64,000 nucleotides of DNA from an uncultured virus (IMG/VR IMGVR_UViG_3300022879_000001). Taxonomy: Duplodnaviria; Heunggongvirae; Uroviricota; Caudoviricetes. The notes under the pieces are model-generated. The model was not told the DNA's origin. It saw only the letters and a list, made by a program, of their open reading frames with translations, and did not search any database. The number at the start of each line of letters is the position of its first letter. Position 1 is the first letter of the stretch. The DNA is taken from IMG/VR virus record IMGVR_UViG_3300022879_000001. One strand, written 5' to 3'. Positions 7,733 to 44,460 of this stretch are shown one piece after another. Both the position numbers and the translations under genes were made by a program.

Positions 7733-8072
7733 TTATATTAAGAATTAATAAAATTTAATATTAGGGTGTGGTATTGGTTGTGTATCTGATGTCGCACCTT
7801 GAAATTAATATATTGAAAAATACATAAAGGTGGTATATCATGGTTAAAAAGTATACTAAAAAAAGATATGATGATTTTGGATTATTCATTATTCCTAACA
7901 GGTGGAGAGAAGGTTTTAAAATTATAAGAGATGAAGATGAATGGATATTTGATAAAACTTATAAAGATAAAGAATCAGCACAAAGTTGGATAGATGAAAT
8001 GATCAATCTTATAGATAATTCTAAAGCTAATTGGAATGCAAATAAATATAATACATAACAGAGGTAATACAT

Positions 8073-8462
8073 ATGATAAAAATTTATACTGATAGCAGTT
8101 ATAAAGATGGAGTATCAACTCATCATTATTATGTGATGAATGGTAATAAAAGAATTAAAAGAAGAACATTTATAGGATTTGATGAATCATCTAATAAAGC
8201 TGAAGCTACAACTATAATTAAAGCTTTACAGATGGTGTTAAAGAAGGGATGGGAGAATGTAACTGTACACACAGATTCATTAGTTACTGTTTTTGGAGTT
8301 AAACATGGAAAGTTTAGTAATGAAGATTTTAGATACATAGCACATTTACTTAAAATAACAAAATCAAACATACAATGGAAGAACCGAAGACATTACCGAA
8401 TTAAAATAGCTGATACTGAATGTCGTAAGATGATGAAAACTAAATTAAGACGAGTAGTTTAA
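8073..8462 (+). CDS. RNase H-like protein
   Basis: IYTDSS...SNKAE...VHTDS...IAD acidic catalytic pattern. Confidence 0.8.
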   Translation: MIKIYTDSSYKDGVSTHHYYVMNGNKRIKRRTFIGFDESSNKAEATTIIKALQMVLKKGWENVTVHTDSLVTVFGVKHGKFSNEDFRYIAHLLKITKSNIQWKNRRHYRIKIADTECRKMMKTKLRRVV

Positions 8463-8723
8463 AAATACATATACATAAAGGTGAGATAGAATTGAATAAG
8501 GATATTGTAAATTTAAAGAATACTTTCGATGTAATTATTAATGAATACAACGACGGTTCAATGCTTAATGATGAAGACAGTATGATGACTTGGACAGCTA
8601 AATGTGATTGGCTTATTAAGCGAATGGTAGACATTAAAGTAGGTGCAGGATTCAAGTATTTTGAGCTACAAAAAGAGTATAATCCACTTCAGGAAAATAG
8701 CAATGTAGGAGAAGGTGAGGATA

Positions 8724-8894
8724 CTGAATAAGTTTAAGGACATTAATGTAATTGGTCATTGTGCAAATAAGGATTGTTCAAATGAATTAGTTAGAGAAGA
8801 TGAGTATCTGATAGATGATCGTAATTTATATTGTGATTCAATTTGCTACACTAGCTATATGTTAGAGGTAGGAACAGTAAGAGAAATTAAATAA
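8724..8894 (+). CDS. Small Cys-rich protein with CTG start
   Basis: GGTGAGG RBS; HCANKDC...YCDSIC; open to TAA 8892-8894. Confidence 0.5.
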   Translation: MNKFKDINVIGHCANKDCSNELVREDEYLIDDRNLYCDSICYTSYMLEVGTVREIK

Positions 8895-9295
8895 TAAAAT
8901 ACATAATGTATAGATATTATTTAAAATTAGTAATACATAAACGATGTTTAAGGATATTTAAAAACATAATTATCAAAAATATAATACATAAATGGAGAAA
9001 ATACATAATGACCCAATACATAGTTTCGTTAGTTTTAAATGGTGACGAATATAACGTAAATGTAAAGAAAGAAAACAAGGAAGATGCTTTACAGTATGCG
9101 AAGGACAAGCTTAAGTTTGACAAGATAATTGGAGTAGCTGAAAAGTTAGACTTTAAACGTAAACGTTTTGGCTATTTAGGCAATCCAGATCGTACACCAT
9201 ATGGCAGTAGAAGTAAGGATATGAAAGCAGCTAAGAATACTAAGCGTAGTCAAATCAAGTATGTAAAATAACATATACATAAAAGGAGAAATTAA

Positions 9296-10045
9296 ATGTC
9301 GAATGAAATTATTTTTGTACAAAGTGAATTCATGAGAAATGAAAACGTTTATCGTGATGAAGTTTTAGAAAAGGTTAAAATTATTCCAAGTCTAAAGGTA
9401 ACTGATGAAGTAACAGTGGAAATGGCTTCTAATTATTATGAAGTACCAATTGAGACAATAAAAAGCGTAATTAAGCGTCATAGAGATGAGTTTAACGACT
9501 ATCAAGAGGTAAGAGTTTTAAAAGGAAAATCATTGAAAGAATTTTGTGAGGTGCATCCTGAACCTGACAAAATAATATCCAGTAAAACTAGATCATTACA
9601 ATTAATTAATCGCAGAGGGCTGTTACGACTAGGCATGGTGTTAACGGAATCAGAAGTAGCAATTTCAATTCGTAACTATTTATTAAATGTAGAGGAAATA
9701 TCAGATAAGAAGCAAAGAGAATGGGCAGTAGAACGTGAAATTTCAAAGCGTAATCGTAGAATGCTTACTGATGCCATTAAAGAGTTTTGTGCAGGATTGA
9801 TGAAAGGACATGAGTACTCTACATATACAAACTTAGTTTACAGTATTGTATTTGATTGTAAAGCTAGTGATTTGCGTGAATTATACGACTTAGAAAAGAA
9901 GGAACAAATCAGAGATTCTTTGACTACAGAAGATTTAGAGAAGGTTGTAGAGGTTGAAAAAGTTATTACTTCATTATTGAAGATAGGAAAAGATTATGAA
10001 TACATAAAAAGCGAGTTGCAGAAGTATAAACATAATTTTAATTAA
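9296..10045 (+). CDS. Putative phage DNA-binding/antirepressor-like protein
   Basis: N-terminal VTVEMASNYYEV...IKRHRDEF wHTH-like segment; RRGLLRLGMVLTESEVA. Confidence 0.5.
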   Translation: MSNEIIFVQSEFMRNENVYRDEVLEKVKIIPSLKVTDEVTVEMASNYYEVPIETIKSVIKRHRDEFNDYQEVRVLKGKSLKEFCEVHPEPDKIISSKTRSLQLINRRGLLRLGMVLTESEVAISIRNYLLNVEEISDKKQREWAVEREISKRNRRMLTDAIKEFCAGLMKGHEYSTYTNLVYSIVFDCKASDLRELYDLEKKEQIRDSLTTEDLEKVVEVEKVITSLLKIGKDYEYIKSELQKYKHNFN

Positions 10046-10102
10046 TACCACTCTATTATTAAAAAATACATAGTTTAATTATAAAACAGAAAGGAAGAAG
10101 TT

Positions 10103-10540
10103 ATGAACCAAGTTCATGAATTAAAAATTTTAAATGAGTATTTTGAGGGAGTTAATGAAGGGCTAAAAACCTTTGAAATTCGTAAAAATGACCGAAACTT
10201 TCAAGTTGGAGATTTTCTGTTATTAAAAGAATATACTGGAGAGCAATTCACAGGACGAGAAATATTACAACAAGTCACTTACATGACAAATTACGAGCAA
10301 AAAGAAGGTTATGTTGTCATGTCAATTCAAAGTGTACCAATTAGTTTTGGTTTTTATTTGAACATGAGTGAGAAAGAGAAGACTGTTTTTAAGAAGGTCA
10401 TTACTCACATGCATTTGTACGGAACAGGAGTCAGGGATGTAACCAATACTTTTTGGGAAATTATTGACGAACTTATAGAACGACGTGGGTTAACAGAATC
10501 AGACCAACAATGGTATATGGAATTTTGGAATGAAGATTAA
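10103..10540 (+). CDS. ASCH/PUA-like DUF3850 protein
   Basis: HELKI...G.KTFEIRKNDRNFQVGD.L.L.EY motif. Confidence 0.85.
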   Translation: MNQVHELKILNEYFEGVNEGLKTFEIRKNDRNFQVGDFLLLKEYTGEQFTGREILQQVTYMTNYEQKEGYVVMSIQSVPISFGFYLNMSEKEKTVFKKVITHMHLYGTGVRDVTNTFWEIIDELIERRGLTESDQQWYMEFWNED

Positions 10541-10577
10541 TCGAAAAGAAAATGTACAGGAAGGATGATATATGTAG

Positions 10578-10943
10578 ATGGATATTTTAACAGATTATAG
10601 AGATTTAATAGGTAAGAAAATTGTATTTTCACATATGGCTCAGTTTGCAGAGTAAATCACATTAGCAACAGAAGACGGTTGTGTATTAATGGCAACATTT
10701 GATTATGATGAAATGGCAGAAGAATCAAGAGTAAGGGTTATGTATCCTCATTCCGTAATTCGAGTACTAAACGAACAGGAATGGATACGTAATGAATTAG
10801 GCAGATTAGGTATTTTTGATATTGAAAAATATAAAGAAGAACAGCGTATCAAACAAGAAAAAGAAAAAGAGGAATATCGTAAAAAGCAAGAAGTGAAAGA
10901 ACGTGCCGAATACGAACGTTTAAAGGCTAAATTCGAAAAGTAA
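10578..10943 (+). pseudogene. Hypothetical protein interrupted by in-frame TAA
   Basis: ATG 10578 is in frame with ORF 10689-10943; TAA at 10653-10655. Confidence 0.6.
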
Positions 10944-11006
10944 TCACTGAAAATGATATTAAATAATAGTGGAATTTTATCTAAAAAAAAATAAGGAGGT
11001 TTTAGT

Positions 11007-11453
11007 GTGAGCTATGAAATGCAAATTAAATTGGATAAGGAAACAATGGAGAACATTCAGAATGAAATTATAACTAATAATCCTTTTGATTTTGAAGGAT
11101 GCTTCTGTGGCACTGCTAATTTTTCAATTGGTACTATCAATGATACAGAATTATTTCTATATGTTGATACCAGTTGTCGAAAGAGTATGGGGTGCGACAA
11201 TGGTTATTACAGCGTTTCTGGATTCACTTTTTCTAAGAAAGTAAACGCAAAAGAAACCAAGAAGTATTTAGATTGGCAAGAAAGCGATGACGAGTATAGT
11301 GAGAAACTAGAAAATTTTTATTTGTTAGATGATGAAACAGTTCTTAAATGCTGTTTTAGACATTATAAATTAAATGGTAAGCAGGAAAAGAAAATCAAAA
11401 AATGGATTAATGACTTATACATAAAAATGTATGGTTATGATCCATTAAAATAA
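11007..11453 (+). CDS. Hypothetical protein
   Basis: AGGAGG RBS, 148 aa. Confidence 0.7.
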   Translation: MSYEMQIKLDKETMENIQNEIITNNPFDFEGCFCGTANFSIGTINDTELFLYVDTSCRKSMGCDNGYYSVSGFTFSKKVNAKETKKYLDWQESDDEYSEKLENFYLLDDETVLKCCFRHYKLNGKQEKKIKKWINDLYIKMYGYDPLK

Positions 11454-11459
11454 ATTAAT

Positions 11460-11510
11460 TAATAAAATACATAAAAAATACTTGAAATTAGTTGGTTGGT
11501 AGATTAAGAT
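11460..11510 (+). promoter_or_regulatory. SigA promoter with conserved upstream element (copy 2)
   Basis: TAATAAAATACATAAAAAATAC-TTGAAA-17bp-TAAGAT. Confidence 0.65.
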
Positions 11511-11626
11511 ATATTTATCAAAGAAAACAAATAAATGAAAGTTATAACATTCTCATTGTAAATAAATAGTTGTTATGTAGCAAATGTCGGTGATTAGTTA
11601 ATAAAATACATAATAATGAAACGGAG

Positions 11627-11827
11627 ATGTTTATAATGTTTGAAGAGATAAAGCAGATAAGTAACGATTCCATATTAGATGACAAACTAAGACAAGCCAT
11701 GATCAAGCAGATGGAAATAGGTTATCAGCAAATGTATGAAATCAATCTTCAAATAGCAAACGAATGGTACGATGTTGAAAATGAAGCTGAAGCGATAAAC
11801 GATCAGATTGTGAAAGGGGAATGGTGA
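11627..11827 (+). CDS. MazE/NdoAI antitoxin C-terminal mimic (probable anti-MazF)
   Basis: MEIGYQQMYEINLQIANEWYDVENEA aligns with the B. subtilis NdoAI segment MRRGYMEMAKINLNISSEAHFAECEA (recalled); no RHH domain. Confidence 0.7.
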   Translation: MFIMFEEIKQISNDSILDDKLRQAMIKQMEIGYQQMYEINLQIANEWYDVENEAEAINDQIVKGEW

Positions 11828-11829
11828 TC

Positions 11830-12278
11830 TTGATTAAAATTATACAAGGTGACATTTTACAAAGTGATAAAGATGTCATCGGGCATCACGTTTAGGTGTT
11901 ATGGGTGCAGGAGTTGCTAAACAAATCAAGGACAAGTACTATGAGACATTTTTGGAATATAAAAAGATGTGTGATAGTCATAAAGAAAGTAGAGAGGAGT
12001 TAATGGGTCATGTACATATAGCTCATAACTCTGACGGAAAGATAGTTGCTAACATTTTTAGTCAACTGGATGTAGGTAGAAATGAGCGTAAAACAGACTA
12101 TAAAAAACTTAAAATAGGTCTGAAAAAGGTATGTAAGTACGCAAAAGAAAATAATCTTTCAGTTGCTTTACCATACAAAATTGGTTGTGGTTTAGCAGGT
12201 GGTAATTGGAACATTGTTTATAAAATCATTGATTCCGTATTTGAGGATTATGAAGTAACGATGTACGAGTTTAAATAA
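11830..12278 (+). pseudogene. Macrodomain (TARG1/DarG-like ADP-ribose hydrolase), frameshifted
   Basis: TTG 11830 MIKIIQGDIL..DVIGH, then a frame change to LGVMGAGVAKQIK...PYKIGCGLAGGNW; conserved NC residues missing. Confidence 0.75.
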
Positions 12279-12324
12279 TAAATAGGATGTTTTTATATAA
12301 ATAATTAAAGTGAGGTGAACTGAG

Positions 12325-12582
12325 ATGTCGAAACATTGGTTAGAAGAAGTTAATTACAACAAAAATAAATCACAGCAATTCGTCATAACATATAAAGATA
12401 ATGGTACACTTAAATCCTTATCTAAGTTTGGTTCAATTACATACAAATCACCAGTTATAAATGTATTATTCATAGATACTGAATACAGCAAAGAACGATT
12501 GTTGAAAATAGACGGTGTAATGAGTGCAACTGTACCAAAGAAAGGTAGATTGCTAAATAATAAAGAGAAAAGTACATATTAG
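12325..12582 (+). CDS. Hypothetical protein
   Basis: GAGGTG RBS, 85 aa. Confidence 0.65.
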   Translation: MSKHWLEEVNYNKNKSQQFVITYKDNGTLKSLSKFGSITYKSPVINVLFIDTEYSKERLLKIDGVMSATVPKKGRLLNNKEKSTY

Positions 12583-12593
12583 AGGATAATTGA

Positions 12594-13220
12594 ATGGAAA
12601 AATTAACGAATGAGGAATTAGTGGAGTTATATCAAAGCGATAATAACGAATTTGCATTTGAAGAGTTGTATAAGAAGAATAAAGGACTTATATACAATGT
12701 ATGCTTAAGATTTAAGAACACAGCAATTATTACCAAAGAAGATATAAAAAGTGCTTGCGATTTAGGATTTGTAAGAGCAGCTAAGTCTTATAGTAATGAT
12801 AACAATTGTAAATTTTCTTCTTATTGTCATGTTGTAATGGTCAATGAAGTAAATACAAACATTAATACTGCTCGTAGACAAAAGAGAGATAGTTCAAATC
12901 ATTTATTTTATTGCTTAGATGAAAAGGTAAATGAAGAGGAAGGTAGTAAGCTAGTTGACATACTGAATACTTCAGATAATGATGTTTTACATAAGAGCGA
13001 CTATACATACTTACATAATGCGATTGAATACGCAAAAACATCGATAAATGAAAAATACCATCAATACTTATTACCACTAATGTTTAGAGAAACAACTACA
13101 AACGAAGTAGCTCTGATCATTGGAGTAAGTCCAAGGACAGTGCATTATACAACTACTATGTTTAGAGAGCATGTACGAGAATACATATACCATTACTCAG
13201 AAGGCGAAATAGTTTCATAA
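12594..13220 (+). CDS. Phage-encoded sigma-70 family sigma factor
   Basis: LTNEELV..YQ...AFEELYKKN.GLI, EDIKS...LGFVRAAKSY...KFSSY region 2; C-terminal HTH EVALIIGVSPRTV. Confidence 0.85.
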   Translation: MEKLTNEELVELYQSDNNEFAFEELYKKNKGLIYNVCLRFKNTAIITKEDIKSACDLGFVRAAKSYSNDNNCKFSSYCHVVMVNEVNTNINTARRQKRDSSNHLFYCLDEKVNEEEGSKLVDILNTSDNDVLHKSDYTYLHNAIEYAKTSINEKYHQYLLPLMFRETTTNEVALIIGVSPRTVHYTTTMFREHVREYIYHYSEGEIVS

Positions 13221-13485
13221 TAACGGAGATGATTAATTTGAAAGTAAATGTTGTTTATAAAGTACATTTAGATAAGAGAAATAGAATTGGTGAATTTTAT
13301 AAAGAGATAGCAAAGGTGTGCAGCAAGGATGAAAATGAATATTTGCAAGTAGCTTTACATAGAAAGAAAAATACAGAATCACATATTAGCTACATTTTAG
13401 GTCATTTAAAAGAGAGTGAATTAAGTAAGTACATAATCTTATAAAAGAATGATTTTATTAAATGAAAAATAAAAAAAGGATGAAA

Positions 13486-13647
13486 TCATCCTTTAGGTTT
13501 AGTATCAGTATTCTTATTGACTTGTTCTAAAGCTTCTATATACTTTTTAGCAGTTTCAAGCTCATCATGGGAGATACTGTTTATAAGGTTTTTCAAAGCA
13601 ATATGCTCATCTAAATTAACTACTTTGGGATTTTGATTTTCAGACAT
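13486..13647 (-). CDS. 53-aa protein antisense to the surrounding array
   Basis: AAGGA RBS; MSENQNPKVVNLDEHIALKNL...; ends in hairpin AAAGGATGA-AA-TCATCCTTT. Confidence 0.6.
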   Translation of the reverse strand: MSENQNPKVVNLDEHIALKNLINSISHDELETAKKYIEALEQVNKNTDTKPKG

Positions 13648-13736
13648 ATACGATCAATCCTTTACAACTTATATAGTGATTATATTAGCACTTTGTTTTA
13701 GTTTGTTTCAAATAAAATGATTATGGAGGAACAGGG

Positions 13737-15024
13737 ATGGAAGAGTTGCGTTATAAGCCAAGTGAAGTTCAAAAATTAATCTTTAAAGATAAAGAAAATG
13801 TTTCAAACTATATTAATGTATCAATTGAAGAAATGGATTATATGATGGAATTAGCAATCAAATATCAGCAACTACATGAGACATGGTTCAAAGGAATCGA
13901 AAATGAAGAACCGACTATTTTATTCTTACGTAAATGCAAAGAAGTAATTGAAGAAGTAAAGCCTGAGTATAGAAAAACAATGACCTGATATTTAATAAAT
14001 AAGTATTATTGAAGGGATGTTGAGGATGAGTAAATTAGAAATAATCAAGAAGCAATGGACTGAATACGAGACAGAATTTGGCGAGAGTGATTTTATGGAT
14101 ATTGATAAACATACTAGCATGGCATTTAATGTACCAGTATTATTAAACAAATTAGATAAAATTCATAAAGATTTACTTCAGATGAAGAAAGACAGTAATT
14201 GTAAATATGTTGATATTGACTATATGTTAAATGCTATTGAAAATGAAAAATAGTAAGGAGAGATTTTAATGAACGATAAAGAAATAGAAATGACATTACC
14301 AAATGGTTACACTGTTGCAATTTTCGAATATGAAGGAAATATTGTATTAAATTTGATTAATGATAGAGGCTATTCAGTTTCAGATACAAAATTACATAAA
14401 TCAGAAATAGCGAAAATACATGAAATAACTGCTATTAAATAATAATTCACTTTTATGAAAGAGGTGTTAAGTTTGTGAAAAAGGAAGCATTTATTATAGT
14501 AGATGTTAATGAAAAGTATTACTGTGAAGAATTTATAGATGGTAATGGAGATCTCCATTGTAAGACAGATGATATTGATTTAGCTTTACATTTTGAAAGC
14601 CGTGAAGATGTTGAAGAATATTTAAAATATATTGCTTATCATGATTTCTTAAAGGAGCATAATCCTGAAAAAATTATTAAGGTTTTAATCGAATATCAAA
14701 TATCAGAAGAGTACCAGATTTAATAATAGTACGATATCATTTAAAGGATGTGAGATAAATATGGATAACCTAAGCTTAACTAACAAACCCTCAAGACCAG
14801 TCAAACCTAAGAAAGTGCCGAAAGGAACTAAAATTATTGCACTAGATGAAAATAAAATACTTATTAGCGAAGGAGATTGGCATCCAGAAGCAAGTACAAT
14901 AATAGATTTTAGTGCAAGATATGTTGATAGAGCAGGAATTGATCGATGTGGAAATGAACTTTTCGGTAATCGTGGATTTAAATATAAGGATTATGGTGTT
15001 AAATGGAATTTCTACAATGAATGA
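13737..15024 (+). other. Array of small hypothetical ORFs (13737-13988, 14017-14253, 14269-14442, 14475-14723, 14761-15024)
   Basis: Co-oriented short ORFs with RBS. Confidence 0.7.
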
Positions 15025-15090
15025 AGTTAATAAAATACACGTATTATTTAATCAATGATAACAAAAATACATAAAAAGGAATGATGTATA

Positions 15091-18004: not shown

Positions 18005-18053
18005 TAATAAAATACATAAAATTACTTGCAATATAAGAATAAGGTGCTATAAT
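18005..18053 (+). promoter_or_regulatory. SigA promoter with conserved upstream element (copy 3)
   Basis: TAATAAAATACATAAAATTAC-TTGCAA-16bp-TATAAT with TG extension. Confidence 0.7.
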
Positions 18054-18685
18054 AAATATATAAGTTAAGAAAGAGGGTGATGACAATGGTCAGTAGATTG
18101 ACTTTTACAGAAGAACAGGAGATAGAAATCTTGAATGAGCTAGATTTTATGAATGATCAAAAAGAATTTACTCGTGATAATGCTGTTTGGTGTAATAAGA
18201 CAATCAAGAAGCTGCTACTAGAATTACATTTTTTAAGAAATGATATTATTAATAAATAAAATACATAAAGGTGGTAATTACTTGAATGAAACACCGTTGC
18301 AAGAAAATGAAATTCAATTAACTTCTGAGTATAGGATTACAGGGGATAAGATGAATATTATCCTCACGGAGCGTTACCAGAAACAGGACGGTAAAGGTCG
18401 AGGTAAGGGGTTGTTAGATGAATATACTTATGGTAGACCTAAGTATTATGGTACATTAAATGCATTAGTTGATTCATTGATTAAAAATGAAGTAATTGAT
18501 TCACTTGGTAAGATAAAAGAATTACAAGAAATAATCCCTCGTATTGAAACAATTAGAAACGAGATTAAAGAATACATAAATGAACAAGTAACAATTGTAC
18601 AAGAAAGTACAAAAAGTAAGAATAATAGAAAAGTAAAAGGTATAGAAATTGCAGAAGATGATGAAGTAAATGATGGTGATGCCGA

Positions 18686-19306: not shown

Positions 19307-19551
19307 TAAATAACATTATACATAATTAAAAATAACTATCGAACCTTGAGTGATGTAAATAATTAAAATTTATACATATAAAGGTGAATTTTCTAAACAA
19401 TCGCATGTTCTCAAGTAATAAGTTTCGCCAAAGCTTATTGCATATTCTCAAAATAAAATCCTAATATTATTTAAACTTTAGTTAGGTACATTGTGATTTG
19501 TTCGATAGTTAAATGATAAAATACATAATTGAAATGGAGAGATTTATTAAT

Positions 19552-20907
19552 ATGGCTAAAAAGAACAAAGGCGAAATTAAGATTAACAAAAAACACGAAG
19601 GTAAAGAGTTTTCAAATAGTTTTCACTTTGTAGGTTTAGTTAAACCTGTACAAAAGAAAGATAAAGATACAGATAGTTGGTATGATGTTGAAATCTTTGA
19701 TACTAATAAAACTCAAACTAATAAAGACCGTCGAGTATTACAGTTTGTTGTTGAAACAGCATTTAAAAACGAACTTAAAGTTGAGTTAGCAGGAATGGAA
19801 ATGGGGAGTGCCTACGCTTATAGCTCTACTCATAAAAAAACTGTAAAGCTTGATTGGAATGATCGTTTAGATAAATCTAAATATCCAGATGAAACATATC
19901 ATTTAATTCAAACTGATTGGGACAAAGCAGAGCGTCTTGGTCAAATTGTAGAAAAAGATATGTGGGTAGAAGTAAAGGGTAAATACGAATTTAGCTCATT
20001 TACTAATGACGAAGGCAAAGAAATCAATAATGTTAAACGAATTATTGAACATGTAGTGCCACTTAAAAATGGTGAAGTTATGATTAAAGGTTTAACAGAA
20101 GGAGATACTTTCAAAGCCTACGATTCTGCTGAAGGTGGAAATTACTTAGGAATGGGCAAAGCTGATAAAGAAGGCGTAGCGACTGTTCGTGTAGGATGGT
20201 TAAATCCTGAAGGAGGAAAGTTATACATAACTAAAGTTACTGACGATGTAGAAGGAACACGATCAGAACAATCTTATAGCTCTACGGTAGTAGAAGGTGA
20301 ACGCATTACAATCAAGAATAATGTAGATAGCCAAATTGGATTACCTAAAGTTGATGGAAATCGAGGCTATAACTATGTTCCTTATGTACGAAACTTTAAG
20401 GATGAGAGCTTTACAGAAATTAATTCATTTGAAATGCAACTAGGTATCAAATCTACATATCAAGATGAGACAACACTAGATACTAAGATCAATGGAGTGT
20501 ATTTGGATTATGGTAAAGATAAATCCGTTCCACGAGATGTTGAGTTAGTAGTTTATCATAAGGAAGCTGAAGAAGGTAAGACTCCGTTTGCTACAGCATT
20601 CGGACGACTGAATCATTTAGATTTCTTAGTAGTAGAAGGTATCGACAATAATCGAGCTGAGTTCACAATGGTAGAAGTTGCAGAAAAAGAAGAGGATAAT
20701 CCATTTGAAGATGTGAGTGAGAAGGTCACAAGTTATGAACAAGCATCATCTGGTACGAAAAAAGGGTTAGAGGTATTACGTTATATTCAAGGTACATTCG
20801 CTCGTGAATTACTGACTGAAGATGAAATTACTTTAAATGTAACAAGTAATGAAGATCCGTTTTCTAAAGCACCAATTGAAGTTTCCGAAGACGACTTGCC
20901 TTTCTGA
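19552..20907 (+). CDS. Putative ssDNA-binding/replication protein (YorF-like position)
   Basis: OB-fold-like segments; acidic tail ending DDLPF; GGAG RBS before ATG 19552. Confidence 0.6.
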   Translation: MAKKNKGEIKINKKHEGKEFSNSFHFVGLVKPVQKKDKDTDSWYDVEIFDTNKTQTNKDRRVLQFVVETAFKNELKVELAGMEMGSAYAYSSTHKKTVKLDWNDRLDKSKYPDETYHLIQTDWDKAERLGQIVEKDMWVEVKGKYEFSSFTNDEGKEINNVKRIIEHVVPLKNGEVMIKGLTEGDTFKAYDSAEGGNYLGMGKADKEGVATVRVGWLNPEGGKLYITKVTDDVEGTRSEQSYSSTVVEGERITIKNNVDSQIGLPKVDGNRGYNYVPYVRNFKDESFTEINSFEMQLGIKSTYQDETTLDTKINGVYLDYGKDKSVPRDVELVVYHKEAEEGKTPFATAFGRLNHLDFLVVEGIDNNRAEFTMVEVAEKEEDNPFEDVSEKVTSYEQASSGTKKGLEVLRYIQGTFARELLTEDEITLNVTSNEDPFSKAPIEVSEDDLPF

Positions 20908-20981
20908 TTCAAAAGACCTATATAACTATTCCTTATATTAAAAACAAAAATACATAATTTGAAATGGAGAGATTTATTAAT

Positions 20982-22136: not shown

Positions 22137-22146
22137 ATACATAATT

Positions 22147-22180
22147 AGGGTAGGATAGCTTTATTCTACCCTTTATTTTT
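22147..22180 (+). terminator. Intrinsic terminator-like hairpin
   Basis: AGGGTAGGATA-GCTT-TATTCTACCCT followed by a T-rich run. Confidence 0.6.
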
Positions 22181-28235: not shown

Positions 28236-28303
28236 TATTAATAAATAAATTACATAAAAATTAAATATTATTGAAAATACATAAAAGAAAGAGGTAATTT
28301 TTA

Positions 28304-29344: not shown

Positions 29345-29955
29345 ATAAAAAAATACATAATTGATTTTAAATAAAAGAAACCTATTATAAAAGGAGATTG
29401 ATTACATATGTCTAACAAACGACGAGAAATGTTTTTATCAGGAAATCCAGTATTAAAACGATTTACTAAAAATACTGTTGTTAAGAATTTTGGAATCACT
29501 TCTGAAGAGTTTGATAAGTTGATTGATGATGGATTTATTGAAGAAAATAATAATGACATCTGTGTTAGCTGTTATCGAACTTGGAATCACGACCACGATC
29601 AATGTGTTTATTGTGGAGATGAGGAATTTGACAAGGAAGATAGCTATTACAGTTACAAGTGACATTTAATAAAAGGAATATTTTATAAAAAGTGAATTAA
29701 ATAATTTTACAAATAAATAATAACGAAAGATAGGTGATTAAGATGCTTTGTATTAAATGTAATAAAGAAAATACTAAATGCATTGATGATATGCTACAAC
29801 CACTTTACATAGCCGAGATATATGAGTGTAATGACTGTAAAGGTACAATTGAAGTAATTTACAATGGAGAAATTAAAAAAGATAAAATTAAAGATTATCG
29901 TTATTATAAGATTTTATAAAACACGCATTTTAATAAAAGTATTGGGAGGAAATAA

Positions 29956-30883: not shown

Positions 30884-30910
30884 TTAAATAAAAAACATGG
30901 AGGAATATTT

Positions 30911-33900
30911 ATGACATTAACAAAACAGAATTTAAAAAACACTTTTAAAGGTGCAAGAACAGTCGGTTCACCATTTGTATTTGTGGGTATTGAAGCAGAA
31001 GGGATTAAAGAAGTAATTTCTATCCCATCAGCATCATTTGAAGCAAAGGAACAGTTTTACAATAATGCGTATTCAGATGATCTGGTACATGTAATGAATA
31101 GTAAAGTGAAAATTACAGGGTTGGCTCACGGCTACCCAGAAGCACTTACCGATTTAGTTTAAGAAATGTTAAACATACCAATGAGAGGAGAATTAAAATA
31201 GGAATCTATTCTTATGGAAATCATGATAAAAAGACAAATATTCAAGATGACAAAACATTAATGGAATATCTGGAGATAGTTAATAAAGATCGTACATATC
31301 AACTTGTAGTAAGACAAGAGTTTCATTTTGAGAAAGGTTTACTTAGAACAAGCAAATATAATTGGTATGAGGTTTTTGTAGATATGGGTAATGGTGAACG
31401 ACAACATTTATATAATTGTGTCAACAGAGACATTGTAGAAGCTTATTTATGGGGACGTGTTCATGGTATAGAGGTTAAATAAAATCACACTATTATTAAA
31501 TTAGAAGGGAATAGTTAGTATGGATAATTTATATAAAGTAGTGCATCCAAAAGTAGATATTAGAGACTTTGTAGATTTTAAAGATAAAGATGCGGTAGTT
31601 GTAATGTTTCGGACACTTCAGGATGCAGAATGGTATTTATTGAAAAAACGTTTTAAATTTGACAAGCGTAATGACAGTTATATATTCACTAAAAATAATA
31701 CAACAAGTATAGCATCAATTATTGATATGACAGATGGGACGACTATTAAATAAAAGATTAGTATTATCAAATACATAATTGGAGTTGATCTTATGCAAGA
31801 TGGGAAAACAGTAACCGAACAGAATGTATGGGAGCATTATAAAAAGGTGGAAGCTGAAAACTTTCATCTCAAGAAACAACTCGTCAATAAGAATAGACAA
31901 ATTAAGCAGCTTAAACGTGTGATTAGTACACTGAAAGCTAAGTATGAAAAGCTTACTGAAAATCGTAGACCTAAGTACAAAAATACAATTAGAAGAAAGT
32001 AGGATGAATATTGATGGACAGTGTAAAAGTTAATATCAAATGTGAGACAGGTATTTTTGATCGTGATGAAGTAGAGATGAATCAATATCTAGAATTAGTA
32101 GATGAAGATGTTGTTGGCTTACTTCCAGATAATAAATTCATTGGCGTTAAGGTTTCAGTTGAAAAATAAAATAGGTGGCGACTTACGCTAGAGGAGATTA
32201 ATTTATGAAGAATTTTTTAATGAATGTAATGGACTTAAAAGTTTTCGATGAGAAAGGTAAGCTTATAACAAAGCTAGACTCGGCTACAAAAGGGGTACTA
32301 GTACATAGTGATCAGGCATCATATTTCGCAATTAATATTACAGACTTTAATATTGATATGATTAAAGCTATCGGAGAAGTTGAGAACAACAAAGATTTAT
32401 CAGACTTTGAAAAAGAATTAACACCTAAGTCAACTAAAATTAAATTTAAGCCATTGTATCATAGTGAAAACCAGAAGAAGTTTAAGTTAATTGCTGAAGG
32501 GAATTTACATAATGCCCTAGGTGATCCATCTCATGAATTTAAAGTAGTAATTAATGAATCAGTTTTATCATCTGGATTAGAATTTGAATTTAGCAATGTT
32601 GATATGAGTGAGTATACTCATGTATTTAGTATTTATGTAGATAAAGATGGAAATAGCTTTGAGTTAGAATTAATTGAAAAATAAATAGCAGATATTCTAG
32701 AAATCATGAAAGTGGAAAAATTTGTGAAATTTTTCATCATTAAAAGCCTATAAGCGCTGGATATAGAATTTCATTTCACAAACTTTTTCTCAATAAAATG
32801 ACAATATTATTTAATTATAAAAATACATAAACAGAATGGAGTAAATTAATTATGAAGAATACTTACATTAGCGAATTGTACCAAGAATTATTACTAGGAT
32901 TGAACGGATTAATAAATAAGACAGTTGAGATTCAAAAAACACAAGAAAGTAACACTCATGATTATCGTAAAGCTTTGTCGTTTCAATTAGAGCTAGAGAA
33001 AACTAAATTAAGTATTATGCAATCACTATCTGATTCATTTGATACTAAAATCAAGAGTAAGGAATTAGTAGGGTACGATAATGATGGTCGAGAGGTGTTC
33101 AAGATTAAAGAAAACGGTGATGCTCGTTTCGTTGGAGAAATTTCTACCCAAGATTTAAAGAAATCGAATGAAGATGAAGAAGTTGCAGTCAATGACAACG
33201 CAGTAAGTGATCTACTCGATACTCTTTGGGAAGAAGTGCGGAAGGTTGTGGATGAAAGCTTAAAAGAAGTTGATGAGAAAAATAAACATCATATCAACAT
33301 TACACTTAATGGATGTGAAACTTCTGCGAAACAATTTGCTACAGAAATCATGAATAAGATTAGAAATAATAAAGGTTGTAAGCTCTAAATAATATTTTGA
33401 TTTTATAAAAGGAAATATAAAAATAGAAAAGAGGAATTTAATTATGAAAGGAATTAAAGGAATGACAGGTATGTGCGGATTAGAAGTATTGAACAATAAA
33501 TTACATGAGCTTCAAAATGAGAAGGATATTCTTCTTTGCACATATGGTAATGATGTAATTTATAAACCTGAGCATAGAAGAATAGTTGCTGATATTCAAA
33601 TTCTAAACAAGGCTATTGAAGATTTTAACCTAAAAGAAATTCATTCCAATGTAGAAGGATACGTAAAAGAAACTTCATACGACCAAAATTCAGGTTTGAC
33701 AGTCTAGGTATGGTCGAAGGATGTCTATATTACGATGTAACTGAAGTTAAATAATATTTTGCTTTTATGAAGTTAAATACATAAACTTAAATGAAAAGGA
33801 AGGTAATTATATATGAAGAGTATTTTAGTAATTGTCGAAAATAGAGGTTTAATGAACGCTGTTATTATGGAGATAAAAAAGAATATAGAGGTTAATTCAA

Positions 33901-35076: not shown

Positions 35077-35194
35077 ATAACTAAATACATAAAAATTGAA
35101 ATGGAGGGAGTTTATTTCTGCAAGAGAAGCGCACAATTTTTAATTGTCATTAGAGCTTCAAATGAGATATGTTTTGTAGAGAATAAGCGAATAA

Positions 35195-36427: not shown

Positions 36428-36477
36428 TAATAAAATACATAAAATATACTTGAAATATGAAATTAAGATGTTATAAT
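36428..36477 (+). promoter_or_regulatory. SigA promoter with conserved upstream element (copy 4)
   Basis: TAATAAAATACATAAAATATAC-TTGAAA-16bp-TATAAT with TG extension. Confidence 0.7.
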
Positions 36478-36617: not shown

Positions 36618-37022
36618 GTGATTGAATTGGAAGACATCAAACAATTTGAAAAAGACTTAACGTTTGTAAGGAACTTTTTAGAAAAGCTACCTAGAGAAGT
36701 AGCAAGCCTATCTAAAGTAATTAGTTGTAAGGACAGAGAACAAGAAGATTTGTTGCATCATATCGAATTTGTTAAATTGCCTGCAAATCAAGGATATACA
36801 GCATATCGAAGATTACACATCATTAGAAACGAACGTAGGCAGGCTAAAAATTTATATGAAGTTGTAAAATTGGCAAATGATTTAACTAAAGATAAATTGT
36901 CAGTCTCAACATTAAGTACTGCTCTAGGCGAAATAAGAAAGATAATTAACAATAGCTCAAATAAAAAGTATAGGCCTAGAGAATTAAGCGATTTAAATTA
37001 TGGAAACAATAATACATATTAA
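36618..37022 (+). CDS. Conserved phage hypothetical protein
   Basis: D.LHHIEF...GY..Y..L...R..RR.AK...YRPR.L pattern. Confidence 0.6.
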   Translation: MIELEDIKQFEKDLTFVRNFLEKLPREVASLSKVISCKDREQEDLLHHIEFVKLPANQGYTAYRRLHIIRNERRQAKNLYEVVKLANDLTKDKLSVSTLSTALGEIRKIINNSSNKKYRPRELSDLNYGNNNTY

Positions 37023-37036
37023 AATACATAAAGATT

Positions 37037-37543: not shown

Positions 37544-37591
37544 ATAAGAAAATACATAATTAATACTTATGAATAGAAAGAGGATGGTATT

Positions 37592-39154: not shown

Positions 39155-39218
39155 GAGTATTAACCTTGGTATGTTATAAAAACAACCATAAAAACTTAAT
39201 TAAGGGAGTCTATTATAT

Positions 39219-40895: not shown

Positions 40896-40951
40896 TTTGA
40901 TAAATTATTACATAAACAAAGATAATACATAAAAAAGGGGAAATATAAATT

Positions 40952-41485
40952 ATGGCAACTTTCACTAACAAATTACAAAATATCGTTGAGGATTTTCAAA
41001 TCACATTTGGACATCCTGCCGAAACAGTTCCAACATTGCCCACATTAGAGCGATTCACTAATCGTAAAGGTTGGGGATCAATTGAGGAAGCTGTTGAGCA
41101 ATTATACTCAATCTCAAATACTCAAGAGGAATTCGTTAAAGCAGTAGATAAGTTACATACTTACCTAGATAAAGCTAAAGAGAAGCAACTACAGAAACCT
41201 TTGGTTACTAATAAGACTGATAAAATTGTAGCGTTAGCTGATGGCTTAGGTGATGAGTTATGGTTCTTACTTGGTGACTGTGTGGAAGCAGGTATTGATA
41301 TTCAACCTGTAATCGAAATCATTAAAGCTAGTAACGATTCTAAGTTGTTCGTAGATGATAGTGGTAATAAGTATGCTAAACAAGATGAGAATGGCAAGAT
41401 CATGAAATCAGAATTCTTCTTTGCTCCAGAGGAACGCATTAAGGAAGAAATTCAGCGTCAAATTAATAACGGCTTAACTAAGTAA
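40952..41485 (+). CDS. MazG-like NTP pyrophosphohydrolase
   Basis: EEAVE, ADGLGD, SNDSK...GKIMK motifs. Confidence 0.75.
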   Translation: MATFTNKLQNIVEDFQITFGHPAETVPTLPTLERFTNRKGWGSIEEAVEQLYSISNTQEEFVKAVDKLHTYLDKAKEKQLQKPLVTNKTDKIVALADGLGDELWFLLGDCVEAGIDIQPVIEIIKASNDSKLFVDDSGNKYAKQDENGKIMKSEFFFAPEERIKEEIQRQINNGLTK

Positions 41486-41625
41486 AATTTGGTTCTATAT
41501 GTAGTGGCTATTTATATAATATTTTAGAATTTAGTACTACATATAGAACGGACTTTCAATAAAACATGGATATTATTGAAAGTATAAAATATTGGGTGAC
41601 GACCACGTCAGAGGAGAAACTATTT

Positions 41626-41991
41626 ATGACAATTAAAAATCAATATAACTTAGAGTTAGATATTAAACGACTATATACTGGAATTGTTCCATCATTCACA
41701 AAAAGCAAGGTTAACGAAATAACTATTAAAGTTCTAGATAATGGTGAGTACTTTGATATTAGCTCGGTAGAAAAGGTGACTGTCGCATATAAAGATGCAT
41801 ACGGAAGAGTATTGCAAAAGACTTGTGACTTTATTAATCTAAACGATCATAAAGTTGTGCTAATTAATGTATCTAAGCTTGATATTGCGATAGGTAATTC
41901 AGATTTAACAGTTACATTAGAAGATAGCTTTGGACGTGCTACTCTACAAAGCTTCAAGGTAGATGTAATAGATGGATTTAATAATAACTAA
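41626..41991 (+). CDS. BppU N-terminal-like domain protein
   Basis: LELDI...F......ITIKVLDNGEYFDIS..V.V.Y pattern. Confidence 0.4.
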   Translation: MTIKNQYNLELDIKRLYTGIVPSFTKSKVNEITIKVLDNGEYFDISSVEKVTVAYKDAYGRVLQKTCDFINLNDHKVVLINVSKLDIAIGNSDLTVTLEDSFGRATLQSFKVDVIDGFNNN

Positions 41992-42448
41992 AATAAAAGA
42001 AGGAGAATGATTATTTATGAAATCACGTAAAGAACGCAAATTAGAAGCAAAACAAAACGGAGTAAAATTTGTACCTCAGTACAATGGTACAGGAGTAGTA
42101 TCATTTGAGGATTATTATGGAGTAGGAAATGAACGATTCAATAATAAGTTTGTACAGTTTCTAAATCCTGTTGAAGATGTAGAGGATATTAGAATGTCTA
42201 AAGAAGAAATTGATGTGACGATTAAGACTCATGGATTAATTAATATTGAAGCTAATGAGACAATTTCAAAAGAACGAAATGGGATCGAAGTTATTGAAGC
42301 AGAGGCGATTGTTGAAGCTCCTAAAAAGAAGAAAAATGGTAAGTTCAAAAAGGCATTGAAGAAGCTTTTTAATAAATAAAATACATAATTTATATGAGAG
42401 TGGATTAATTCTACTCTCATTACTTTTATACATAAAGGAGAGCTTGGA

Positions 42449-43312
42449 TTGACCGAATTAAATAAAGCAGAAAAGTATCTGATTGAAAACTTAACTAGAT
42501 TGGCTAATGAAGGATGTATGGACGATAATCCTAGACCTAAATGGCAAGACGGAACTCCTGCCTATAGCGCATTTATCAGTCCAGTATTTGAAACATATGA
42601 TATTTCAAAAGGTGAGACTCCCATTACAGAATTACGTCCAATTGCAATTAAAAGTGCAATTAGAGAAATTGAATGGATATATAAGGATCAAAGTAACGAT
42701 TTGAAGCTACTACGTGACAATTACAATATTAACTGGTGGAATGAATTTGATATCGGAGACGATTCAATAGGCATTAGATATGGTGCAACTGTAAAGAAAT
42801 ATGACTTAATGAATAATTTATTAGATGGTTTAATGAATAACAAGTTTGGTCGTAGGCATATCTTATCCATGTGGCAGAATGAGGATTTTAAGGAATCAGA
42901 TGGTTTGAACCCATGTTGCTACAGTACTATGTTTACAGTAAGAAAAGTAAAAGAGGATTTTTACTTAGATATGACATTAACATCACGTAGCAGTGATTAC
43001 CTAACAGCAGGACACATAAATAGGATGCAATATTTGGCGTTTCAAATGATGATAGCTAAACACACTTCAATGAAAGTTGGTAAGTTTAATATGCTAACTC
43101 AAAACCTTCATATTTACGACAAGCATTCTGATAACGCTATAGAAATGTTGAAGCGAGTAGATGAATTAAAATCTAGAGAAGTTCAATCCCAACCTAAGTT
43201 AATTCTAAATGTTCCAGATGGTACTAAATTTTATGACATTTCAGAAAAGAATTTTGAGTTGATTGATTATAACCCAATTTTGCCACAACTTAAATTTGAA
43301 TTAGCCGTGTGA
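42449..43312 (+). CDS. thyA: Thymidylate synthase
   Basis: RRHI, LNPCC, RSSD...N, HIYD motifs. Confidence 0.92.
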   Translation: MTELNKAEKYLIENLTRLANEGCMDDNPRPKWQDGTPAYSAFISPVFETYDISKGETPITELRPIAIKSAIREIEWIYKDQSNDLKLLRDNYNINWWNEFDIGDDSIGIRYGATVKKYDLMNNLLDGLMNNKFGRRHILSMWQNEDFKESDGLNPCCYSTMFTVRKVKEDFYLDMTLTSRSSDYLTAGHINRMQYLAFQMMIAKHTSMKVGKFNMLTQNLHIYDKHSDNAIEMLKRVDELKSREVQSQPKLILNVPDGTKFYDISEKNFELIDYNPILPQLKFELAV

Positions 43313-43342
43313 TCATACAAACAAAAAAGGAAGTAGTGTTAA

Positions 43343-43648
43343 TTGATAATTAATGAATGGACAGTTAATCATTACTTATGGACAGTTGTAGTGGCAGTTT
43401 TATTACTAATGATAATAATCCCAACGAGTGTTTACTTTAAAGGTCGTTCTATTTCAAAAATAAATATATGTATAGGCTTAGGAATATTAGTTTTTGCAGT
43501 ATTAGTATCTACATTGTCAACGAAAGAAAAACATATTTACTACAATTACAAAACCTATAATGAGGTAGAACAATTGGAATCTGATGGATGGGATATAGTT
43601 AGAGTATATGATAACAAGAAAATCATTCATGCCAAGAAAGCAAAATAA
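43343..43648 (+). CDS. Small membrane protein
   Basis: Two hydrophobic segments. Confidence 0.6.
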   Translation: MIINEWTVNHYLWTVVVAVLLLMIIIPTSVYFKGRSISKINICIGLGILVFAVLVSTLSTKEKHIYYNYKTYNEVEQLESDGWDIVRVYDNKKIIHAKKAK

Positions 43649-43775
43649 AAGGAGCGAACGTCAATAAGACACTCGCTCATACGTGACTTAGAAGTGAATC
43701 AGGAAAATTCGGTTTAGTCACATCTTGATTTTACTATCAAGTCACGTATGAGTCAATTATGAGTAGGAGGAGTAT

Positions 43776-44309
43776 ATGAGTATCAATATGATAGTTGCAA
43801 TTAATGAAACAAATTCTATAGGTAAGAGTGGACAACTTTTATATAGAATTAAAAAGGATTTACAACGTTTTAAGCAACTTACTCAAAATAATAGTGGACA
43901 TCCTAATATATGTCTAATGGGTAAACGGACATTTGAAGAATTACCAGAACCATTAGACAAGCGTGTAAATGTAGTTTTAACTTCAAATAAGAATTACAAA
44001 GTTCCAAATGGAGTAATTGTTGAGTCATCATTTGATAAGGTATTAAATCATTACTTAAAATCTGGAGATCAAGACAAAGACCTCTTTATTTGCGGTGGAC
44101 AGAAGTTATTTGAACAAGCATTACCTTTTGCTGATAAAGTTTATATTACATACATACATGACAATAAAAAGGGAGATACATTCTTTCCTTATGAAAAAGT
44201 AAAACAGCAATTTAAAATAATACATAAAGAAGAACATGAAGAGAGTGGATTAGAATTTGAATTTATTGATTATGTAAGAAAGGATGATGTATTTGGAGAA
44301 AATGCATGA
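43776..44309 (+). CDS. dfrA: Dihydrofolate reductase
   Basis: MIVA...IG..G.L, DL.RFK.LT, MGKRTFE.LP.PL..R.N.VL, ICGG, GDTFFP. Confidence 0.92.
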   Translation: MSINMIVAINETNSIGKSGQLLYRIKKDLQRFKQLTQNNSGHPNICLMGKRTFEELPEPLDKRVNVVLTSNKNYKVPNGVIVESSFDKVLNHYLKSGDQDKDLFICGGQKLFEQALPFADKVYITYIHDNKKGDTFFPYEKVKQQFKIIHKEEHEESGLEFEFIDYVRKDDVFGENA

Positions 44310-44460
44310 ATTTGAAGGTATAAAGGTGCGAAGTATTCCGACTGTTAAAGATATAGAATTCATATGTAACGATGAAGCTAAAAAAAACAGAGAGCAATTA
44401 GAAGATAATATCATAGATTTATTTGTATCTTATTTTAAAAATAATACATATAAAAATTAA
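44302..44460 (+). CDS. 52-aa protein, candidate recombination directionality factor
   Basis: GGAG RBS; last gene of the operon before the terminator and serine recombinase (position of SPbeta sprB). Confidence 0.45.
   Translation: MHEFEGIKVRSIPTVKDIEFICNDEAKKNREQLEDNIIDLFVSYFKNNTYKN

Follow-up and report, generated by a model that had tools for sequence, protein, structure and literature searches.

A sense-strand UACAUA motif, identical in sequence to the MazF/EndoA target, recurs between the genes of a distant SPbeta-like phage and is absent from its lysogeny genes

Introduction

Why should the same few letters recur, on the strand of the message, between so many genes of a single phage? 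The question is raised by a stretch of 64,000 nucleotides (nt), hereafter the window, from an uncultured virus of the Caudoviricetes (IMG/VR record IMGVR_UViG_3300022879_000001), in which the pentamer TACAT is found again and again in intergenic gaps, often next to a ribosome-binding site or a start codon. An initial annotation of this DNA, made from its letters alone, proposed that these pentamers are sense-strand targets of the host toxin MazF, placed in leaders and gaps; as an alternative, it considered that they form the core of a directional DNA operator or promoter element. Judged from its sequence, the window belongs to a large, distant SPbeta-like phage of a soil bacterium.

Here, we report that most cistrons of this phage carry a strand-specific load of UACAUA, that this load is positively selected and that the lysogeny genes are exempt from it. 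The recurrence of TACAT is best explained as that of the UACAUA site of MazF (EndoA), selected on the sense strand. Taken in full, with the way of working that we propose below, we hold this explanation to be probable, while leaving real room for doubt.

Results

The repeated unit is a hexamer in an A-rich frame

The 33 plus-strand positions listed in the initial annotation all read TACAT and, without exception, TACATA; 19 of them read AAATACATAA, 31 are intergenic and 23 lie at most 45 nt before the next start codon. The five positions listed on the minus strand are borne out as well, each ATGTA lying within TATGTA and three of them being intergenic on our gene map. In an unbiased scan of the hexamers of sense intergenic DNA (intergenic DNA amounts to 8,222 nt, or 12.8% of the window), TACATA came first by z score, with 41 copies observed, 4.9 expected and 4 on the antisense strand, and outranked the Shine-Dalgarno hexamers. 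This core was derived without reference to MazF.

At the level of the pentamer, TACAT occurs 54 times in sense intergenic DNA, against at most 24 times for any of its 29 other anagrams and 25 times on the antisense strand. The strand bias that had been claimed for the pentamer thus holds between genes but not within them (143 sense and 150 antisense copies), where it is the hexamer that is biased. In the same way, while the recurrence itself had been correctly seen, its unit is not the pentamer but TACATA set in an A-rich frame.

The consensus module is TAAATAAtAAAA, followed by TACATA and then by A(A/T). The window holds 28 matches to AAATACATAA, compared with 1.46 +/- 1.06 in 100 dinucleotide-preserving shuffles, none of which reached 28; 25 are on the plus strand within 1-48 kb and 3 on the minus strand beyond 54.5 kb. 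AAAATACATAA is found 19 times on the plus strand and never on the minus strand, and AATACATA, the commonest 8-mer of the window, 46 and 9 times, respectively. When single mismatches to AAAATACATAA were allowed in sense intergenic DNA, next to 17 exact copies there were no variants at any of the six core positions and 6, 2, 0, 2 and 3 variants at the five flank positions. Strong conservation spans about 11 nt, the eight positions upstream contributing only about 0.05-0.33 bit each.

Many gaps have longer modules in common that are made of A and T only (8886-8926, 28237-28277, 7115-7154, 3002-3036 and 31746-31780, as well as about 15027-15052 and, on the minus strand, about 58280-58305). Some of these are inverted repeats, TTAAATAATA ... 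TATTATTTAA, with TACATA in the loop, and a palindromic variant, AAAATACAC(G/A)TATT, is present in two copies. Gaps that lack the motif often read TAAATAAAA-n-CAC-ATTTTATAAAA. The leaders at 19518-19548 and 20948-20978, which precede the neighbouring genes 19552-20907 and 20982-22136, are near-identical and contain the motif followed by GAAATGGAGAGATTTATTAATATG.

The sites lie in the gaps between co-directional genes

Of the 52 co-directional gaps that are at least 40 nt long, 28 have one or more sense sites; the figure falls to 4 of 22 for gaps of 20-39 nt and to 1 of 25 for shorter ones. Most sites are located 0-20 nt past a stop codon, with 5-45 nt left to the following start, and they often adjoin the ribosome-binding site. 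In addition, 53 of the 80 plus-block cistrons have a site either in their 5' gap or in their coding sequence. The concentration in A-rich leaders that had been proposed is therefore real, but the sites are not restricted to leaders. Indeed, those at 22138, 35979 and 42382 stand between a stop codon and a terminator-like hairpin (the hairpin at 22147-22172 came from a scan, the two others were seen by eye). Moreover, four sites (3502, 11468, 18013 and 36436) are found 5-7 nt upstream of a sigma-A-like -35 box, in conserved modules of 35-46 nt.

A sigma-70 promoter reading was tried separately and rejected, as sigma-70-like matches were no more numerous than in shuffled sequences (110 vs 127 and 93 vs 106).

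The motif is conserved in two relatives and follows the direction of the genes

Two nearly complete relatives, with MrpR proteins 90-91% identical, could be compared with the window: G003 (132.6 kb) and the provirus G002 (154.8 kb). Over the whole genome, intergenic TACATA ranks first in G002 (95 sense copies, 13.7 expected, 17 antisense) and second after AGGAGG in G003 (84 sense, 12.0 expected, 13 antisense). In G003 the bias is present in the early block (56 sense, 10 antisense) as well as in the late block (27 sense, 7 antisense), and 44 of the 46 minus-strand copies of the 9-mer AATACATAA fall within 0-68 kb while 21 of the 23 plus-strand copies fall within 69-104 kb. From this distribution, the motif follows gene direction in both blocks, which agrees with the flip to ATGTA in the minus-strand block of the window that had been pointed out at the outset. 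In 46 alignments of orthologous gaps between the window and the two relatives, the core is kept in 40, and its positions are 93-98% identical compared with about 85% around it.

Within genes, selection acts on the hexamer and on the sense strand

For coding DNA, the first 30 and the last 11 codons of each gene were trimmed, because gene-end counts depend on the open reading frame (ORF) caller, and the interiors were compared with synonymous-codon shuffles that keep the protein sequence and the codon usage. Sense TACATA is enriched about 1.8-fold in the window (59 vs 33.5 expected, z 5.6), and it is the first of 2257 hexamers in G003 (85 vs 44.2, z 8.1) and the first of 2744 in SPbeta (83 vs 39.3, z 8.0). 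In the latter two genomes antisense TACATA is neutral (z 0.4-0.6). In seven genomes in which the sixth base was varied, TACATT, TACATG and TACATC stayed mostly within about z +/-2, so that the signal is confined to TACATA; the exception is TACATT in phage A511, at -3.9.

TACATA reaches a z of at least 5.3 in 11 of 12 genomes examined that encode an MrpR homologue, these 12 representing a smaller number of independent lineages. The hexamer is first in phi3T (77 vs 34 expected; 3584 hexamers), in Tsamsa (125 vs 54.5; 3396 hexamers) and in Geobacillus virus E3 (99 vs 52.4; 2160 hexamers), second in pW2 and FADO, 14th in phi116 and 18th in a Staphylococcus SPbeta-like phage.

The sole MrpR-homologue genome without this bias is that of the Alicyclobacillus phage KKP_3916, with 22 copies for 23.9 expected in coding interiors and 3 for 6.4 in intergenic DNA. 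In the host of this phage, MazF may be missing or may differ in specificity.

The opposite bias was observed in the Herelleviridae, which infect MazF-bearing hosts and which we take to be virulent. All five members examined are strongly depleted in sense TACATA within genes: SPO1 (4 vs 28.8 expected, rank 3754 of 3760), K (5 vs 36.9), A511 (2 vs 38.5), EF24C (15 vs 34.6) and LP65, over its first 80 kb (1 vs 17, last of 3001). In these phages the antisense strand is neutral and the other sixth bases are mostly so. This depletion looks like an evasion of MazF. The small phages SPP1 (3 vs 6.3) and phi105 (4 vs 6.5) do not inform on this point.

The repressor operon and the serine recombinase gene are free of sites

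The YopP/YopQ/MrpR-like operon has no sense site in the window, where 3.9 are expected, nor in G003, G002, E3, phi116 and phi3T; a single one is found in the Staphylococcus SPbeta-like phage and another in SPbeta. Over five lineages, phi3T being left out as a close relative of SPbeta, 2 sites were observed where 17.1 are expected, which by our own arithmetic corresponds to a Poisson probability of about 6e-6. Antisense counts in the operon are ordinary. Likewise, no sense site is found in the serine recombinase gene of any of the four genomes compared (window, G002, E3 and SPbeta), where 8.6 would be expected in total. While sites of the plus block are spaced by 535 nt on average, its three longest stretches without a sense site are 44445-48488, 50855-54600 and 3502-7064.

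The core equals the strict MazF hexamer, and the phage encodes a MazE-like peptide

As reported in the accessible text of PMC11780869, MazF (EndoA) of Bacillus subtilis cuts only the hexamer U/ACAUA in vivo, Rend-seq having revealed that U/ACAU needs a following A. A preprint (bioRxiv 10.64898/2026.08.06.743204), in its accessible part, extends this to the MazF proteins of B. subtilis, Listeria monocytogenes and Staphylococcus aureus, which cleave UACAUA and not the hexamers with other sixth bases, and describes MazF as prevalent in Bacillota with a conserved specificity. Compared letter by letter, the core of the motif is identical to this strict hexamer.

A scan of 92 window proteins, and of G002 and G003, revealed no PemK/MazF gene, which implies a host enzyme. 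Geobacillus virus E3 (W05), itself among the phages most strongly enriched in TACATA within genes, encodes two PemK/MazF-family proteins (29723-30037 and 30817-31113), both over the Pfam cut-off.

The window encodes, at 11636-11827, a 63-residue protein that aligns with the C-terminal part of YosL of SPbeta and whose gene has a leader site of its own (11607). A profile of its family, run against 177,635 PDB sequences, gave only two significant matches: residues 58-93 of MazE/EndoAI (4me7_E, E 4.2e-7) and AimX (8anv_C, E 8.1e-6). In the available parts of 10.1101/2023.04.27.537455 and PMC10769878, AimX and YosL are described as binding and blocking MazF, which, when active, promotes lysogeny in phi3T. 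In the helix, the residues M, G, Y and M, among them M26, Y30 and M33, are invariant in the 20 sequences aligned, and E32 is kept in at least 90% of them, the window copy having Q at this position. These residues match the M, Y, E and M that are given as key residues of AimX for MazF binding in the accessible portion of PMC10769878. The gene would thus encode a mimic of AimX and of the MazF-binding C-terminus of MazE, that is, a putative MazF inhibitor.

Setting of the sites in the window

The window has a G+C content of 30%, and its plus-strand genes extend from position 1 to about 48.2 kb. The YopP-, YopQ- and MrpR (YopR/SroF)-like genes lie at 3456-7024 on the plus strand. The MrpR homologue (6050-7024) matches PF22822 (MrpR_N_CB) with an E value of 3.8e-17 and is at most 29% identical to any counterpart in 50,697 phage records. 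Further on, a sigma-70 region-2 protein is encoded among the early genes (12594-13220), helicase, primase, exonuclease and family-A DNA polymerase genes at 22.8-28.2 kb, and genes for ribonucleotide reductase, thymidylate synthase and dihydrofolate reductase are also part of this block, whose last members are the genes for a large serine recombinase (44565-47033) and for a radical-SAM protein. Beyond them lie genes of the ParM-like and FtsK/SpoIIIE-like kinds, and a minus-strand block that starts at 54.7 kb opens with a lysis cassette (holin 57442-57693, M15 peptidase 56727-57428). The sites and the associated features are collected in Table 1.

The junction between the early and late blocks (44565-54484) comprises the serine recombinase, a YfkB-like radical-SAM protein, a ParM-like actin (48620-49465, minus strand), a phrog_3750 protein and the FtsK/SpoIIIE-like ATPase, and nearly all of it is without sense TACATA. 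The window appears to show the arrangement of the excised phage and not a prophage end.

The five named relatives of one window protein all come from Lysinibacillus, so that, as far as its sequence tells, the host genus would be Lysinibacillus and not that of B. subtilis. YonO homologues are present in both G002 and G003, and no homologue of AimR, YopM or YopN was matched by tblastn at E <=0.01. As a neutral control only, we used relatives of the family-A DNA polymerase in bacterial genomes; the 18 loci, all 36-40% identical, lack the motif.

Other features of the window are worth recording. An early gene (8073-8462) encodes an RNase H-like protein, with weak matches to PF00075 and PF13456. 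Within an AAA_24 gene, positions 20991-21815 are 73.7% identical to the B. subtilis phages Goe11, Goe12 and Goe14; this is the sole stretch with nucleotide similarity to known phages among the 10 kb tested, and it may be a horizontally exchanged piece. Finally, in four metatranscriptome runs (out of 18 RNA runs) contigs break repeatedly at the same points, where strains or repeats branch. Contigs of three of the four join 8905 to 15027, skipping 6121 bases, with a shorter side of 20 letters. This join is either a deletion variant mediated by repeats or an assembly link through a shared module.

Table 1. UACAUA sites and associated features of the window (sites are on the sense strand; nt, nucleotides; positions in brackets are those of single sites unless a range is given)
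Position	Strand	Feature
88..93	+	Intergenic site (TACATA)
1462..1467	+	Intergenic site
2268..2273	+	Leader site, 40 nt before start of 2308-2520
3028..3033	+	Directly before ribosome-binding site of ORF 3053-3247
3502..3507	+	Conserved module 6 nt upstream of sigma-A-like promoter 3514-3542 (repressor operon)
3579..7024	+	YopP/YopQ/MrpR (SroD-F)-like repressor operon; 0 sense UACAUA (3.9 expected)
7064..7069	+	Directly past terminator-like hairpin 7036-7054, which closes the repressor operon
7128..7133	+	Intergenic site; weak flank; lost in G002 and G003
7821..7826	+	AAAAUACAUAA touching ribosome-binding site, 19 nt before start
8052..8057	+	Site overlapping stop codon of 7840-8058
8068..8073	+	Between ribosome-binding site and start of 8073-8462
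8466..8477	+	Tandem pair (8466, 8472), leader of 8492-8731
8900..9007	+	Cluster of four (8900, 8934, 8985, 9002) before 9008-9271; 8900 in loop of an A/T-only inverted repeat
9276..9281	+	Leader site, 20 nt before start of 9296-10045
10067..10072	+	Leader site, 36 nt before start
11468..11473	+	Conserved module upstream of sigma-A-like -35 (TTGAAA)
11607..11612	+	Leader of MazE-C/AimX-like gene; kept in G002 and G003
11636..11827	+	63-residue protein like the MazF-binding C-terminus of MazE (EndoAI), AimX and YosL; putative MazF inhibitor
15068..15073	+	Leader site, 23 nt before start
18013..18018	+	Conserved module upstream of sigma-A-like promoter 18026-18053
18262..18267	+	AAAAUACAUAA between stop (3 nt) and ribosome-binding site, 20 nt before start
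19319..19378	+	Two intergenic sites (19319, 19373)
19522..19527	+	Leader of 19552-20907
20951..20956	+	Leader of 20982-22136 (near-identical to leader of 19552-20907)
22138..22143	+	2 nt past stop codon, directly before terminator-like hairpin 22147-22172
28251..28283	+	Two sites (28251, 28278), leader of 28304-29344
29354..29408	+	Two sites (29354, 29403) before 29408-29662
31772..31777	+	Leader site, 21 nt before start
32824..32829	+	Leader site, 28 nt before start
33778..33783	+	Leader site, 35 nt before start
35086..35091	+	10 nt past stop codon
35979..35984	+	2 nt past stop codon, before inverted repeat (by eye)
36436..36441	+	Conserved module upstream of sigma-A-like promoter 36450-36477
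37013..37030	+	Two sites (37013, 37025)
37553..37558	+	Leader site, 39 nt before start
40909..40931	+	Two sites (40909, 40926), leader of 40952-41485
41538..41543	+	Intergenic site; weak flank; lost in G003
42382..42434	+	3 nt past stop, before inverted repeat (42382); second site touching ribosome-binding site of 42449-43312 (42429)
44565..48196	+	Large serine recombinase and radical-SAM gene, in longest sense-UACAUA-free stretch (44445-48488)
51027..54484	+	phrog_3750 and FtsK/SpoIIIE-like proteins; 0 sense UACAUA (site-free stretch 50855-54600)
54542..54581	-	Two sites past end of 54715-55752
55779..55784	-	Directly before ribosome-binding site of 54715-55752
58809..58814	-	AAAAUACAUA before ribosome-binding site of 58319-58786
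61061..61066	-	Intergenic site
62092..62097	-	Intergenic site before 61072-62061

Discussion

In this study, computation yielded a motif, its strand and position bias, its conservation, signatures of selection on it, lysogeny genes that are free of it and a MazE-like peptide encoded by the same phage. The proposal that host MazF has its targets on the sense strand of the phage transcripts is supported at the sequence level by the identity of the hexamer, selection within coding DNA, depletion in virulent phages, the site-free genes and the peptide. It also fits what is known of phi3T and SPbeta, whose arbitrium-MazEF system belongs to the same family of phages, YopP/Q/R, YosL-like and YonO homologues being found in the lineage of the window. 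The toxin target is the same and lies on the sense strand; the enrichment of UACAU in the ORFs of phi3T and SPbeta relative to the chromosome was already known from the accessible part of a preprint (10.1101/2023.04.27.537455), and the ORF enrichment is reproduced here by shuffles. An AimX/YosL/MazE-C-like peptide is encoded by the window phage too. However, the window phage differs from these phages in that its hexamer is embedded in a conserved A-rich intergenic module, present in about half of the longer gaps, while SPbeta has no intergenic excess; it also differs by the genus of its host and by the lack of an AimR homologue detectable by BLAST. The accessible parts of Guler et al. (10.1101/2023.04.27.537455, PMC10769878) make no mention of a site-free repressor operon or integrase. 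Our literature searches, whose reach stopped short of the supplements and the journal version of that work, returned no account of intergenic UACAUA modules, of repressor operons without sites or of virulent Bacillota phages being depleted in the hexamer.

How might such sites work? We infer that the host has a MazF with UACAUA specificity, that it cuts at these sites and that the cuts have consequences for the phage. The A-rich module TAAATAAtAAAA-UACAUA-A, predicted to be weakly structured, occupies the space that separates a stop codon from the ribosome-binding site, promoter or terminator that follows, in about half of all gaps at least 40 nt long. Lying between genes, in an A-rich setting that is free of ribosomes, the sites would be accessible. 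The predicted unpaired probability is 0.61 at the sites compared with 0.50 in random intergenic DNA (p 0.009), which lends this accessibility weak support, as an A/T-rich hexamer is less paired anyway. Free MazF would cut the polycistronic phage mRNAs, early as well as late, at almost all junctions and inside many cistrons; upstream fragments would lose their 3' hairpins, downstream fragments would begin with a 5'-OH and lytic expression would collapse. The mRNAs of the repressor operon and of the serine recombinase, having no site, would survive, so that their expression would persist and lysogeny would be favoured. Once the lytic path is taken, the MazE-C mimic (11636-11827) would neutralise MazF.

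Several observations weigh against this explanation. First, the flank TAAATAAtAAAA is conserved in this lineage only, other phages having in common just an A before the hexamer, at 59-85%. MazF specificity does not explain this flank, so that the module may serve another function as well or may owe its spread to duplication. Second, intergenic TACATA is not enriched in SPbeta (17 sense, 9.1 expected, 17 antisense), the very phage with experimental MazF links, and shows no clear depletion in the virulent phages SPO1 (7 vs 6.2) and K (10 vs 10.2). Third, the four promoter-adjacent copies lie upstream of the local transcription start, and cleavage immediately before a strong ribosome-binding site could make the cistron that follows more stable instead of destroying it. 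Genes oriented against their block, a small set, contain 13 sense and 11 antisense copies and thus do not separate the polarity of transcription from that of replication. Finally, all gene maps come from our own crude ORF caller, on which gene-end counts depend.

Could the module instead be the binding site of a phage protein, its TACATA being a coincidence? The protein could be the MrpR/SroF-like repressor (6050-7024), the module being its operator, or an RNA-binding translational regulator or nuclease. We consider this unlikely, although it has a counterpart in the SPBRE/phi3T element, the operator of MrpR/SroF, which is also a repeated, A/T-rich and asymmetric intergenic element (PMC10516654 and 10.1101/2025.11.27.690993, in their accessible parts). 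Indeed, the module is asymmetric, A/T-rich and conserved over about 19 nt, its long flank is specific to this lineage, the phage has an MrpR homologue and four copies abut sigma-A-like -35 boxes. An operator is also favoured by what the available text of 10.1101/2025.11.27.690993 says of SroF, namely that it binds, as a monomer, to a long, asymmetric and A/T-rich box at numerous genomic positions. Moreover, the element that we derived from 9 of 10 MrpR-bound SPbeta promoters, taken from the peak list in the accessible part of PMC10516654, has the 8-mer ATACATAT in common with the module. In SPbeta, however, ATACATAT lies on the strand opposite to transcription and overlaps the promoter, and we regard the sharing as a coincidence, without proof. 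The numbers and positions differ as well. The SPbeta operator, as described in those same portions of the two sources, has about 10 copies at early promoters and is read over its full length of 15-26 bp; here only about 11 nt are strongly conserved, and the lineage has 41 (in the 64 kb of the window) to 84-95 (per genome) sense intergenic copies, which occur in early and late blocks (G003) and stand mostly at ribosome-binding sites or before terminator-like hairpins. The directional operator or promoter core considered in the initial annotation thus fits the four promoter-adjacent copies but not the rest. Nor can a phage-protein site explain the sense enrichment within genes of distant phages, the dependence on the sixth base, the depletion in virulent phages or the site-free operon.

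We give even less credit to a polar DNA motif or cassette-junction repeat, which could be a replication, recombination or translocation signal, for instance for the FtsK/SpoIIIE-like protein that the phage encodes, or the conserved end of intergenic modules that were duplicated or recombined while keeping their orientation; this we judge very unlikely. The polarity does flip with the orientation of the blocks and, as said above, the genes that run against their block do not tell the two polarities apart. The gaps have longer A/T-only modules in common, some of them inverted repeats, and the contig sets that join 8905 to 15027 do so across two copies of the motif. But the core is more conserved than its flanks and has no variants, it equals the MazF hexamer including the sixth base, the sites concentrate beside ribosome-binding sites, and virulent phages that are not related to this one show a depletion on the strand of the mRNA.

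Finally, a phage-specific promoter element, read by the sigma factor of the phage (12594-13220) or by a YonO-type RNA polymerase such as its relatives encode, would account for an intergenic, gene-co-oriented sequence repeated before many genes, but it is highly improbable, since 12 of 46 sites lie at most 21 nt before a start codon (several touching the ribosome-binding site), too close for a transcription start and a leader to fit in between, three copies are directly followed by terminator-like hairpins, the motif occurs in the early and late blocks of G003 and not in one temporal class, a second conserved element 15-35 nt away was not seen, and the coding enrichment and the pattern across lineages would be left unexplained.

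If UACAUA is indeed a MazF site, the way of working proposed here has parallels in other phages. RegB of phage T4 is a phage endoribonuclease that cuts GGAG in the ribosome-binding sites of early mRNAs. In both cases a short RNase target would lie in the intergenic or initiation regions of many phage genes and provide genome-wide post-transcriptional control; unlike T4, which encodes its nuclease and has its target in the ribosome-binding site itself, the window phage would use a host toxin and a site upstream of the ribosome-binding site. The resemblance to RegB is, by this analogy, a likeness of working and not homology. Cluster K mycobacteriophages have start-associated sequences that include the ribosome-binding site. 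Like the sites described here, these are short conserved motifs placed just upstream of many starts and co-oriented with the genes, while the sequence in the window phage is different; we know of no link between the start-associated sequences and a nuclease.

Beyond the window, the data suggest a genome-wide 'MazF code' in the SPbeta family, a proposal whose chances we see as evenly balanced. Positive selection would have loaded lytic transcripts with UACAUA while the repressor operon and the integrase stay free of it; the Lysinibacillus lineage would have hard-wired this code as an intergenic module at about every second junction, and the virulent Herelleviridae of the same hosts would have purged the hexamer. 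If this is true, differential survival of mRNAs would be the hitherto missing step from MazF activity to lysogeny. The contrast, in several distant lineages, of lytic genes rich in sites with a repressor operon and an integrase that are free of them offers a concrete, testable mechanism, selective mRNA decay. The lineage of the window is the cleanest material for it, with dozens of identical 11-nt leader modules that can be mutated letter by letter. The opposite bias in virulent phages would further make hexamer content a genomic read-out of whether MazF is a defence to be evaded or a switch to be used. Altogether, this would point to MazF as a force that moulds the genomes of phages in nature.

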